This document shows positions 15,458 through 33,590 of a DNA stretch of 62,635 nucleotides, in pieces (the first letter of the stretch is position 1; every line of letters starts with the position of its first letter). This DNA comes from an uncultured virus (IMG/VR IMGVR_UViG_3300024255_000007). Its lineage: Duplodnaviria > Heunggongvirae > Uroviricota > Caudoviricetes. The notes beneath the pieces are model-generated. The model did not search any database and had not been told where the DNA came from. It saw nothing but the letters and a program-made list of their open reading frames with translations. Both the position numbers and the translations under genes were made by a program. The stretch lies in the IMG/VR virus record IMGVR_UViG_3300024255_000007. The stretch is one strand, 5' to 3'.

Positions 15458-16362
15458 TATATAAATCCTCTTCCATCTAGTACATAATTTCCGCTAACAA
15501 ATCCATTTAAATCAAATTGACTAACTTGTCTTCTACTGTAAGTTGGCTTACAAGTTACAGTTATTTGACTCATAGTAGGTACCCATGTTGTTCCGCTACT
15601 ATTGTATGTAGTTGGGATACCCATGTCATTCATTCCTTCACTCTTTGCATTTAATGAAACAGCAATGTAATCTACTTCTACCGGTAAATCGACTGTAAAG
15701 TTAGATATTACAACTGGAATGTTTTTAAAGATATAATCTCCATATCCGTTTAATCTAACTACAGGAGGCGGTGCGCCGTCAGTACCGTAATTCATTTTAG
15801 TAACACTTCTTAGATAATGCATGCATGCAACCCAGTAGCGTCCATCTATATCATTTTCAACTGGAAATTCACCAGTTATTGTCATATCATCGGTGCTACT
15901 ATTTTCGTATACTTGGAAAGGATAGTTTGTATGCACTGGTTGTAAACTATTATAATTTGCACTGTGTGAAATAATTACACTAGGAGTAAGTGGAAATGTC
16001 ATGCTGTTTTGTGTATTTCCAAGTGGTGCTAATAAATCGCTGCCGCTCATTGTCGAAGGAACACTTAACCTAACTCGCCAGTCTGCTTCTGTACTGCTAC
16101 TAAACTCTGCAGATGCAGCTCGTTTTTCTGGACTGTCTTCGCTTGGTAAATTTTGACCTCTAAGTTTTTTTGCAAAATTAAATGGTTCAAATACTGCACC
16201 TACTGAATCAGTTATATCGTTTACAAAATTTGTTACTAAACTAGATCCAAAGTTGCCAGCTGATCCTAAGAATTTTTGTACTGTAGATTCTGCTTCATCC
16301 TTCAACGCACCTTCAGCTTTTGAAACAGCTTGGTCTAGTAAATTTTTTGGATTAAATGCCAT
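15457..16362 (-). CDS. Tail tube initiator / baseplate protein (gp48/gp54-like)
   Basis: 301 aa; 'FPLTP...Y......HTNY...PPPVVRLNGYG...F.N.PVVI' tube-like fold pattern; first gene of the baseplate operon. Confidence 0.6.
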   Translation of the reverse strand: MAFNPKNLLDQAVSKAEGALKDEAESTVQKFLGSAGNFGSSLVTNFVNDITDSVGAVFEPFNFAKKLRGQNLPSEDSPEKRAASAEFSSSTEADWRVRLSVPSTMSGSDLLAPLGNTQNSMTFPLTPSVIISHSANYNSLQPVHTNYPFQVYENSSTDDMTITGEFPVENDIDGRYWVACMHYLRSVTKMNYGTDGAPPPVVRLNGYGDYIFKNIPVVISNFTVDLPVEVDYIAVSLNAKSEGMNDMGIPTTYNSSGTTWVPTMSQITVTCKPTYSRRQVSQFDLNGFVSGNYVLDGRGFI

Positions 16363-20337: not shown

Positions 20338-20784
20338 ATGCAGTGGACTTATAAAGGTAAAATAATTGACGAAATACCAGATGAGTACGAAGGCTTTGTT
20401 TATCTTATTACTAACACCACTACAGGCCAAAAATATATAGGTAAAAAACTAGCAAAATTTAAAACTACTAAGCCACCGCTCAAAGGCAGAAAAAATAAAC
20501 GACGAGGCTACAAAGAAAGCGATTGGAGAACTTACTACGGTAGTTCAGATAGACTAAACGCAGATGTAGCAACACTAGGCGAAGACAAGTTTACAAGAGA
20601 AATATTATACCTATGTAAAGGTAGGGGCGAAATGTCCTACATAGAGGCAAGAGAACAATTTGATAGGCGAGTACTTGAAACAGATGATTACTATAATGGT
20701 ATCATTAATGTTAGAGTAGGCGGATCAGACAAACTCAAACAGGCATTGCTAGAACATCACATGCAGGCAAAAAAACCAACTTAA
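20338..20784 (+). CDS. Small stand-alone GIY-YIG family endonuclease
   Basis: 'GFVYLITNTTTGQKYIGKK...W..YYGS...F.REIL...E...YYN' is the GIY-YIG core. At 148 aa it has no obvious extra DNA-binding domain. Confidence 0.8.
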   Translation: MQWTYKGKIIDEIPDEYEGFVYLITNTTTGQKYIGKKLAKFKTTKPPLKGRKNKRRGYKESDWRTYYGSSDRLNADVATLGEDKFTREILYLCKGRGEMSYIEAREQFDRRVLETDDYYNGIINVRVGGSDKLKQALLEHHMQAKKPT

Positions 20785-20788
20785 TCGG

Positions 20789-20817
20789 TTGACAGTTATA
20801 TGTAGATCAACTATACT
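20789..20817 (+). promoter_or_regulatory. sigma70 promoter upstream of a non-coding tract
   Basis: TTGACA (20789-20794), 17 bp, TATACT (20812-20817). Confidence 0.8.
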
Positions 20818-20823
20818 TGTTTA

Positions 20824-21290
20824 TAGGCAGATTTATTATAGCAACAGGCATTCCTAAAAATATTACATACAGGCAAAGCATTCCAACACCTAAGGTTGGC
20901 GGGCCAGTTTAATAATACCGCTGTGGAAAAAGCTCTCGTATAGAAGCACACGTACATATTGATTGACACACCAGAGTGTGGAAGCCATCAAACAAATTGG
21001 GCTTACTAGTTGATATAGATTGCATGTTGGCAGTCGAAAAACACAACACAGTACATAAAAACTCTTTAGCAATAGGAACGAAGCGAGAGGTAGCGCAAGC
21101 GATGTCGACGTAGGTTGGGAAAGGTCAGAGCCCATTGTACTTTGTGTATAAACAATTACCTACTTCCAATGTCTCGGCTGGTGCGACTCACATGAAGCGT
21201 ATTTTGAGATTAGATGGGACCGTAACAGGTTCCGTCTGACTGAAACAATCTACATGAAACTTAAACATTATTACATTCGTAATAATGCAT
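20824..21290 (+). ncRNA. Candidate large structured non-coding RNA (unassigned family)
   Basis: No plus-strand ORF, GC-richer than the flanks, many nested helices with G-U pairs and GNRA loops (see findings). Boundaries are approximate. Confidence 0.6.
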
Positions 21291-21393
21291 TTGTTCATAT
21301 TATAATCACTTCTAACAAACATAATTATAAACGAAGTAAGTAGTTTGAGCGTTAGCGATAACTAATATCTACGAAGTAGATATTCAATAGTAT

Positions 21394-21401
21394 GATAAAT
21401 A
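21394..21401 (+). promoter_or_regulatory. Late promoter box GATAAATA
   Basis: T4 late-like box ~30 nt upstream of ORF 21433. Confidence 0.7.
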
Positions 21402-21432
21402 ACTTTAACTAGTACACAAAGGATTAACTCTG

Positions 21433-33027: not shown

Positions 33028-33131
33028 GATAAATACTAATGTCAAATAGTGTGCCGCAAGGCGGACTTATGCTGTACCCACAGCGTAGCTCATAGAACGG
33101 GCATTGGACTACTTTTTATAGGAGAAAAAAA
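33028..33131 (+). promoter_or_regulatory. Late promoter GATAAATA plus structured 5' leader
   Basis: Box at 33028-33035, three adjacent hairpins at 33052-33102, then an AGGAGA SD. Confidence 0.65.
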
Positions 33132-33590
33132 ATGGGAAGACCACTAAACAAGAGATTTTTTGCAGATGCTACTACAGGTCCTGGTGCAGGAGATGAAATC
33201 AAAGTTAACTTTCACGACGGAGCAGGCGTTAAAGAAGGCTTCATTGTAAAGCAAAAAGGATCTAAAAGATTCGTATGTTCAGAAACAGGTACGTTAGATA
33301 CATTACATACTTGTGTGCTAACAACTGGCAAATTACCAGCAGCACTAACAGCAGGTGAAATGGCTATTTCATTCAAAATGGATGATGCAGAAACATACAC
33401 AGTAAGTAAAATTTCTGGACGTAAAGTAACACTAGTTGCTCCAAGTGCTACAGGCGCAAACGCATATGACGGAAAGTCAGTGCCATGGAACTTTAGTACA
33501 AGTACTACAGATGGTGCAGCACAAGTTGAAGAAGCTGGTGAAGATGATGTCTCCAACACTGATGATGACGATTTCACAGCAGACGCATAA
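33132..33590 (+). CDS. Hypothetical virion protein
   Basis: 152 aa, late promoter, strong SD, first gene of the appendage cluster. Confidence 0.8.
   Translation: MGRPLNKRFFADATTGPGAGDEIKVNFHDGAGVKEGFIVKQKGSKRFVCSETGTLDTLHTCVLTTGKLPAALTAGEMAISFKMDDAETYTVSKISGRKVTLVAPSATGANAYDGKSVPWNFSTSTTDGAAQVEEAGEDDVSNTDDDDFTADA

Follow-up and report, generated by a model that had tools for sequence, protein, structure and literature searches.

What occupies the 648-nt gap (positions 20785-21432) that follows a small nuclease gene in a T4-like large phage? The window analysed here, by which we mean the whole stretch of 62,635 nt, is part of a 124.6-kb virus record that is 34% complete, and the gap is the largest of that entire record when ATG-initiated ORFs of at least 60 aa are counted, with the exception of one 81-aa ORF that lies on the minus strand within the element and is not conserved. 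Upstream of the nuclease lie genes for a late sigma factor, a phosphoesterase and an SMC-type ATPase, the last two of which we take to be gp47/gp46-like, and baseplate and portal genes follow downstream. A first-pass annotation had described the ORF-free stretch as a large, unassigned plus-strand non-coding RNA beginning at 20824, and had put forward two ideas for its function, namely a partner RNA of the adjacent GIY-YIG nuclease and a replication primer. A check of the sequence found every motif that it listed to be in place, and the ORF-free stretch is confirmed as the gap delimited above; one-base indels in the alignments further speak against short ORFs within the element.

The RNA element and its fold

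On comparative evidence, the gap contains a conserved, covarying and pseudoknotted element of ~380 nt (20877-21258) that is common in uncultured T4-like phages, and from an RNA-motif scan of the viral collection we estimate that ~850 stored stretches carry it. The element originally proposed is real, with the qualification that the conserved body begins at ~20877 and not at 20824. Its parts and upstream neighbours are as follows.

20338..20784, plus strand: gene for a small SegE-type GIY-YIG nuclease (148 aa, the size of a catalytic domain), the usual upstream neighbour
20789..20817, plus strand: sigma70-type promoter, inserted with the gene-tail duplication; predicted start near 20824
20843..20897, plus strand: duplicate of the nuclease tail, giving the RNA's first strand, a strand that lies over the stop codon in most relatives
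20877..21040, plus strand: 5' domain with closing pseudoknot 20883-88/21025-30
20898-902/20918-22, 20923-25/20949-51 and 20932-34/20945-47, plus strand: 5' domain helices (covariation)
20956-64/21008-16, 20967-71/20976-80 and 21018-22/21031-35, plus strand: further 5' domain helices (covariation)
21047..21169, plus strand: conserved core with pseudoknot 21047-54/21137-46 and helix 21062-70/21083-89
21091-101 and 21110-15/21158-63, plus strand: variable-length hairpin and helix of the core (covariation)
21116-19/21131-34 and 21075-78/21164-67, plus strand: core helix and possible core helix, both invariant

Positions 20843-20897 are a degenerate duplicate of the tail of the nuclease gene (20738-20790). 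In 97 of 138 distinct loci, the start of the RNA is no more than 30 nt from the end of the nuclease gene at its stop codon, and the window represents a minority arrangement in which the gene tail is duplicated and the sigma70 promoter stands between the copies. This promoter (TTGACA-17-TATACT), previously noted as near-consensus, agrees with the consensus at 11 of 12 positions, and the identical arrangement recurs in 6/8 distinct loci with a gap of 31-170 nt (the window's own included), with a 12/12 match in L131/L214; taken as a class, sites resembling promoters show no excess over chance there (6 against 10.7 expected).

An Rfam search of the region returned no match, either at the gathering threshold or at E<=5, and the models for ARRPOF, GEBRO, PAGEV, GOLLD, ROOL and OLE do not match the element. 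ARAGORN found no tRNA or tmRNA within it; blastn against phage isolates gave one 35-nt match at chance level, and against 72,556 plasmid records none. A group I or group II intron with a GIY-YIG homing endonuclease was considered and rejected, as the element lies between intact ORFs and no Rfam intron matches it. Three matches in GTDB represent the same phage-type locus inside MAG contigs and were not counted as copies in cellular genomes. Our literature search found no description of this RNA; subscription papers fell mostly outside its coverage, and the alignments of PMC10690425, whose accessible portions report 8,495 short IMG/VR candidates, may hold fragments of it. Elsewhere in the window, a 477-nt gap ends in a match to the Rfam freshwater-2 RNA (RF02980, 68.6 bits; positions 33050-33134).

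Folding of the single sequence is no better than chance (z -0.47; for the body, -0.86 on the plus strand and +1.8 on the minus strand), and as such the case for the element stands on covariation. In an alignment of 41 sequences, 73 pairs in 13 helices were 98.2% paired, 23 of them with two-sided changes, and the covariation score was reached by none of 500 shuffles, a result to be read as a consistency check and not as an independent test given that the fold was derived from overlapping sequences. Covariation on 82 representatives (mean identity 74%) gives the helices listed above, including the two pseudoknots. Over the 73 pairs, 304 cells are G-U or U-G and 4 are A-C or C-A, in favour of a plus-strand RNA, and together with the lack of an Rfam match the covariation upholds the description as an unassigned large plus-strand non-coding RNA.

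Among the individual pairings originally proposed, covariation supports the CACAC/GTGTG and GTAGGT/ACCTAC helices, the ATATTGA/TTGATAT stem, the hairpin at 21213-21236 and, on the 82 representatives, GCGG/CCGC. The AAGCC/GGCTT helix is present in the window, but it falls in a variable insert that is missing from several homologues. Three others, CCAAC/GTTGG (20883-20899), the long-range helix TAGATTG/CAATCTA and the pseudoknot CAGTCGA/TCGGCTG, did not hold up in a joint test, in which 437 of 500 shuffles paired equally well, and TGTTG/CAACA was matched by all 500; the actual partner of CCAACA is TGTTGG at 21025-21030. The candidate pairs GGUCAG/CUGAC and GUCGA/UCGGC were dropped, as neither changes on both sides and the cells that fail to pair number 11 and 21, respectively. 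A shorter 5' domain replaces the usual one in 18 of the 138 loci. The core also contains, at 21104-21109, a self-complementary hexamer with a near-invariant TCGA (GTCGAC in 173/207, GTCGAT in 28/207) for which there is no supported intramolecular partner, and through which the RNA might form dimers.

The self-matching segment and the signals beyond it

A guide-like variable segment had been suggested as something to look for behind the nuclease. Such a segment does exist, but what it matches is the element's own 3' flank.

21170..21196, plus strand: upstream copy, with heptamer R1 (21190-21196) at its end; predicted to serve as clamp and primer
21213..21236, plus strand: hairpin between the two copies, its 3' arm overlapping the beginning of the downstream copy
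21232..21258, no strand assigned: downstream copy (predicted DNA target, with the minus strand as partner), ending in heptamer R2 (21252-21258)

The segment 21170-21196 is a wobble-disguised copy of 21232-21258, and R1 and R2 are spaced 49-68 nt apart across homologues. The 294 loci in which the 3' part is complete yield 207 distinct cores. In every one of these the copies agree at heptamer positions 1-6, including 70 of 70 non-consensus letters, and in 202 they agree at position 7. The match ends sharply, position 8 agreeing at chance (44% vs 42%) and positions -3 to -1 in ~0%, and the heptamer is usually closed by C..G (192/207). Sixteen different matched heptamer types occur, with at least 16 changes, or 33 on a rough FastTree tree of 197 rows. 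Longest common substring served to locate the repeats, and one row was shifted manually, a procedure that favours identity; alignment-based covariation had nevertheless flagged the same columns beforehand (identity 1.00 for 21194/21256 and 0.98 for 21196/21258). No third complement on the same strand covaries with the heptamer among 32 of 111 loci in which all variants are covered, and it follows that the partner must be the opposite strand.

The 5' part of the segment is constrained in a different manner. Across 206 of the 207 cores, 593 cells are identical between the copies, 229 are wobble-compatible, none has the reverse polarity and 2 are of another kind; where the copies differ, the upstream one carries G for A or U for C, which are changes that wobble pairing tolerates. 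The upstream segment can pair with the template (minus) strand of the downstream copy over a median of 22 bp (25 of 28 nt in the window). Using RNA:RNA energies as a proxy, and on related rows that do not represent independent events, the upstream copy on the template has a mean of -21.7 against -14.0 for the reverse combination and is better in 206/207 cores; without the heptamer the means are -13.6 and -6.5 (205/207), with shuffled segments at -6.9. Since this polarity fits the upstream copy pairing with the downstream complement, it is the reverse of what we would expect from a rolling cDNA jump. Template-jumping reverse transcriptase systems include DRT2, retrons and telomerase-like enzymes; such a jump was rejected here, with PF00078 found in 0 of 5 records (all incomplete, at 15-85%) while a positive control matched.

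The DNA beyond the downstream copy carries further conserved signals.

21266..21287, minus strand: AT-rich 9-bp palindrome right after R2, with a G..A loop on the minus strand across homologues
21331..21384, plus strand: ACGAAGT...GAGCGTTAGCGA motif with a 9-bp hairpin, C(GAA)G; a candidate site for loading on the strand that is displaced
21395..21401, plus strand: ATAAATA late-promoter-like site of the next gene, assigned from its sequence; outer boundary of the element

Of 212 distinct tails, 119 have a hairpin with a minus-strand G..A loop within 30 nt of R2, where shuffles give 2.3; a motif of GAGYG..AGCGA type occurs in 176 (0.08 in shuffles), and a further hairpin with the G..A loop on the plus strand in 144 (8.6 in shuffles). 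Elsewhere in the 124.6-kb record there is one other match to the motif and one other such hairpin. G..A mini-loops mark hairpins of single-stranded DNA, and we presume the GAGYG..AGCGA-type motif to resemble primosome-assembly (PAS) sites; our literature search found no backing for either the loop type or the PAS likeness. The other match to the motif (window position 16048, minus strand) sits in a structural gene near the coding-strand switch and is probably due to chance. The ATAAATA site resembles the T4 late promoter, and ATAAATA or ATAAGTA is present in 128 of the 212 tails as a raw count taken without a shuffle control.

The nuclease gene and a large part of the element are represented among contigs from RNA libraries, in unstranded data from libraries that may hold DNA and that are blind to strand, transcript ends and level; a lack of cover over the flanking genes was given no weight. 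No joint between R1 and R2 was seen in 8 runs, where coverage is thin. In run X1, a viral-fraction library that we can only guess to be RNA, body contigs covering 20879-21169 reach 900-1250x over a background of ~26x, and the 1251x contig stops one base past R1, with ~18-45x beyond; run X13 does not repeat this. We regard this as a weak hint, which could reflect an RNA that ends at R1 and is either abundant or packaged, but equally a branch in the assembly graph.

The neighbouring nuclease

The upstream gene product is readily assigned by profile (PF19835, E 5.9e-36; phrog_447). AF2 run on the single sequence gave a poor model; the model used here (pLDDT 89.6) has a basic beta-hairpin insert at about residues 40-60, and its best PDB fold match is the I-TevI catalytic domain (E 0.21, prob 0.87), PDB sequence searches having returned nothing meaningful. 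Residues Y22, Y33, G35, E103 and N120 are invariant in 48 sequences, from which no catalytic Arg could be assigned. PHROGs and many GenBank records, including those of isolates H8-H61, label the family 'NAD synthetase', a label that does not fit its GIY-YIG profile and fold.

Could this protein be bound and guided by the RNA, with the 27-nt segment directing it to nick or cut the DNA that flanks the element on its 3' side, an event that could itself start replication or recombination? The linkage of the two is tight. Among the best 80 nuclease loci, the element starts within 200 nt of the stop codon in 78, the remaining two having one intervening ORF and no downstream DNA, respectively; in two RNA-first scans of 120 loci each, the nuclease lies upstream in 70/72 and 49/52 loci with enough DNA, a linkage that holds down to 49% protein identity. 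The overlap of the RNA start with the region of the nuclease stop codon in those 97/138 loci also suits a ribonucleoprotein, as does the architecture of the protein, a lone catalytic domain with a basic hairpin. Proteins that are 98.6% identical accompany different heptamers, which makes it unlikely that the protein reads the repeats directly and is what a reprogrammable guide would permit. In these features the locus resembles OMEGA and HEARO systems, where a structured RNA with a variable matching segment overlaps the end of a small nuclease gene.

The association is nonetheless that of a usual neighbour and not of an obligate partner. The RNA occurs with no nuclease gene nearby in 6 of 138 distinct loci, in both small siphoviruses and a T4-like context; in the latter contigs it lies among unrelated genes with no GIY-YIG gene in the 1.2-2.5 kb upstream, and none was found in G005, a record that carries the RNA (54 kb, 15% complete). 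Conversely, the covariance model has no match in any of five complete genomes of isolates with the nuclease gene (5/5), Melnitz (71% identity) among them, and because the model misses divergent classes, the isolates' lack of the RNA also rests on their short downstream gaps. Other ORFs intervene between nuclease and RNA in some loci. Members of two families of small ORFs, of which one has a Cys-pair motif, occupy that position (L084, L096, L125, L146; L098, L104, L107, L144).

Homologues of the Melnitz protein were scanned at 80 loci, which fall into two groups by neighbouring gene. Behind the nrdB-linked genes there is no model match, and the repeat-hairpin-repeat module occurs in 1/15 loci against 3.2 expected by chance. 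Behind the others, mostly gp46-linked, it occurs in 37/40 (6.5 expected) and, where the core motif of the RNA is absent, still in 23/26 (4.8 expected); the 3' module is as such more widely conserved than the RNA body. The divergent classes use further heptamers with the same pairing polarity in 23 of 24 hand-picked loci, and their bodies adjoin proteins 68-77% identical to the window's nuclease. At least four sequence-divergent structured RNA classes exist at this locus, 0-650 nt behind the GIY-YIG stop codon (L364, L366, L383, L390, L392, L395 and relatives), with only the 3' module in common, and each may be an uncatalogued family.

The co-occurrence of gene and RNA is therefore confirmed as a linkage, with the reservation that each also occurs without the other, and this linkage tracks the conserved gp46 locus of the phage clade, which weakens the idea of an RNA-partnered nuclease. 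So do the module's scarcity in the nrdB-linked loci, the divergence of RNA bodies behind similar proteins, and a locus that is fixed and not mobile. OMEGA and HEARO systems involve RuvC/HNH nucleases and not a GIY-YIG domain, and no Rfam RNA matches here; moreover, the present element keeps a fixed locus (mostly gp46) with one strong copy per record (5/5 related records by the covariance model), its partners occur apart, and its variable segment matches its own flank. Taken together, we consider guidance of the nuclease by the RNA unlikely.

The small siphoviruses deserve separate mention. They carry the RNA just before the terminase genes, and the best example, G006 (25.6 kb, 85% complete, with near-identical L213/L214 covering the missing ~1.1 kb), carries the module and neither a GIY-YIG gene nor a reverse transcriptase; such phages might borrow the nuclease from a helper. 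In scans against PHROGs (27 ORFs) and Pfam (14 ORFs), which exclude the large tail ORF and most ORFs below 80 aa, G006 has no polymerase, primase, helicase or Rep. Just upstream of the RNA, both small-phage types encode a 172-aa ORF (with an HTH-like lead below 0.9) and a 159-aa ORF with no match, the latter showing no likeness to the nuclease, and these could be initiators. G006 (with L216 and L219) and L212 represent ~27-30-kb siphoviruses without recognisable replication genes and with a few ATAAATA sites before genes (on the plus strand of G006, only 4 in 25.6 kb as a raw count). It is possible that they are satellites of T4-like phages, drawing on the late promoters of a helper.

A candidate RNA-primed origin

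The reading best supported by the comparative evidence is the second of the two original ideas, a replication-primer RNA. We propose, with a probability of roughly 0.55, that the element is a ColE1-like RNA-primed replication origin with a programmable RNA-DNA clamp, in which the priming itself is predicted. A folded transcript of ~320-380 nt would be made from the sigma70 promoter or by read-through, and its segment 21170-21196 would be laid on the template strand of 21232-21258, keeping the duplex open. The hairpin at 21213-21236 would sequester the plus strand of the downstream copy, whether as RNA or as displaced DNA, and so free the template, while the wobble disguise would permit RNA-DNA pairing and limit deletion between the DNA repeats. 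A 3'-OH at or in R1 might be generated by RNase H or by exonuclease trimming, or the RNA might make it unaided, with the adjacent GIY-YIG protein as an optional agent; after trimming, the exactly matched 3' heptamer would prime DNA synthesis, and helicase and primase would be loaded at the downstream hairpins and the AT-rich tract. Comparison of homologues establishes the fold, the one-way pairing potential, the concerted 7-nt match, the strand-specific hairpins and the occurrence without a nearby GIY-YIG gene, and an exact 3' end behind a tolerant 5' part would be the profile needed by a primer terminus.

The analogy with known systems is partial. In ColE1, the persistent hybrid cannot do without base pairing between a run of rG in the RNA and a run of dC in the template (PMC4412123), and PMC5043065 describes a persistent hybrid, cleavage by RNase H and priming by Pol I with no plasmid initiator. 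Like RNA II, the element would yield a long folded RNA directed towards the origin with a stretch predicted to pair with nearby template, would need no self-encoded initiator, and would leave a displaced strand for helicase loading. Unlike RNA II, it has no homology to RNA I/RNA II (neither an Rfam match nor a plasmid blastn match), and the fixed G stretch has its counterpart in the predicted clamp, a 27-nt repeat in wobble disguise whose last 7 nt vary freely; the element is, moreover, found in phages. The T4 origins oriF and oriG use R-loops (PMC3016281), and they share with our locus the T4-like phage, the promoter and transcript, the AT-rich downstream tract and an RNA that (here by prediction) primes. 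Those R-loops are independent of sequence, with ~100 bp being enough, in contrast to a ~380-nt pseudoknotted RNA with a specific self-match. Given that in T4 an R-loop origin works without a folded RNA and without any particular sequence (PMC3016281), the ornate body is unaccounted for by the origin model.

Among other structured RNAs, the plasmid motifs ARRPOF, GEBRO and PAGEV (223-349 nt) are likewise tied to replication regions in the accessible part of PMC5737381, where a self-matching segment goes unmentioned; they differ in being plasmid-borne, and their Rfam models do not match. Extrachromosomal mycobacterial prophages have RNA-based origins, which depend on a non-coding RNA but not on a Rep protein; compared by description, they are temperate, carry parABS and have no structure or clamp described in the excerpted text of PMC7157519. 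The trigger of persistent hybrid formation in ColE1 is still called speculative in PMC5043065, and PMC3016281 counts the rules by which R-loops form at T4 origins among the open questions.

Other observations do not add to the proposal. GC skew gives it no support in the window's own record, where the minimum lies 3-5 kb upstream of the element at a coding-strand switch, nor is there a skew switch at the element in G005. The tight GIY-YIG linkage in large phages is not accounted for by the origin model, which leaves it as synteny or optional processing.

After the RNA-guided nuclease, the next alternative is a catalytic RNA that, guided internally by the segment, would nick its own template strand or become joined to it, for which hydrolytic group II-derived ribozymes provide a comparison. 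A multi-pseudoknot core with many invariant unpaired letters, an exact 7-nt guide closed by C..G in 192/207 and the occurrence without a nuclease gene would all suit catalysis, but there is no Rfam ribozyme match and the divergent classes replace the invariant core while keeping only the 3' module, so that we judge this quite unlikely. A transcription device is very unlikely. Here an antisense RNA from converging baseplate genes, or a polymerase jump from R1 to R2, would control read-through where gene blocks meet; the pairing polarity fits both versions and converging genes do follow directly in several genomes, but the 8 runs with their thin cover hold no R1-to-R2 joint, large neighbouring ORFs are co-directional in the small phage and L217, and DNA-type hairpins on both strands are left unaccounted for. 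That the whole structure acts as single-stranded DNA is highly improbable, even though comparative methods cannot reliably separate such motifs from RNA (PMC5737381, accessible part) and the downstream hairpins are of DNA type, given the promoter that precedes the element where a short insert separates it from the gene (6/8, with 12/12 in L131/L214), the strict wobble polarity and the RNA-library contigs over the body. Least probable of all is a packaging RNA, pac-site device or virion-carried RNA, which the position just upstream of the terminase genes in small phages and the very deep body contigs of one viral-fraction library (RNA status guessed) might suggest, but which sits poorly with the lack of an adjacent terminase gene in the window's phage or L217/L270/L277 and with the ends of G006, which lie elsewhere than the element's target site.

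Returning to the RNA-primed origin, it is a doubtful extension that such elements form a superfamily of self-addressing origin RNAs, either ribozymes or working with GIY-YIG, each with a reprogrammable guide and its own primer end and portable between jumbo T4-like phages and tiny ones that lack replication genes. The 16 matched heptamers are natural compensatory variants that make the clamp model directly testable, and if the origins are indeed self-addressing, altering guide and target together would re-address the origin, which might provide orthogonal, re-addressable replicons. Should the GIY-YIG protein or the RNA itself prove to cut, this would constitute new RNA-guided chemistry. If the origin reading is true, it would give a function to an abundant, uncatalogued phage RNA, locate the replication origin of a large uncultured phage clade, and suggest a route by which a ~27-kb phage without replication genes is replicated.
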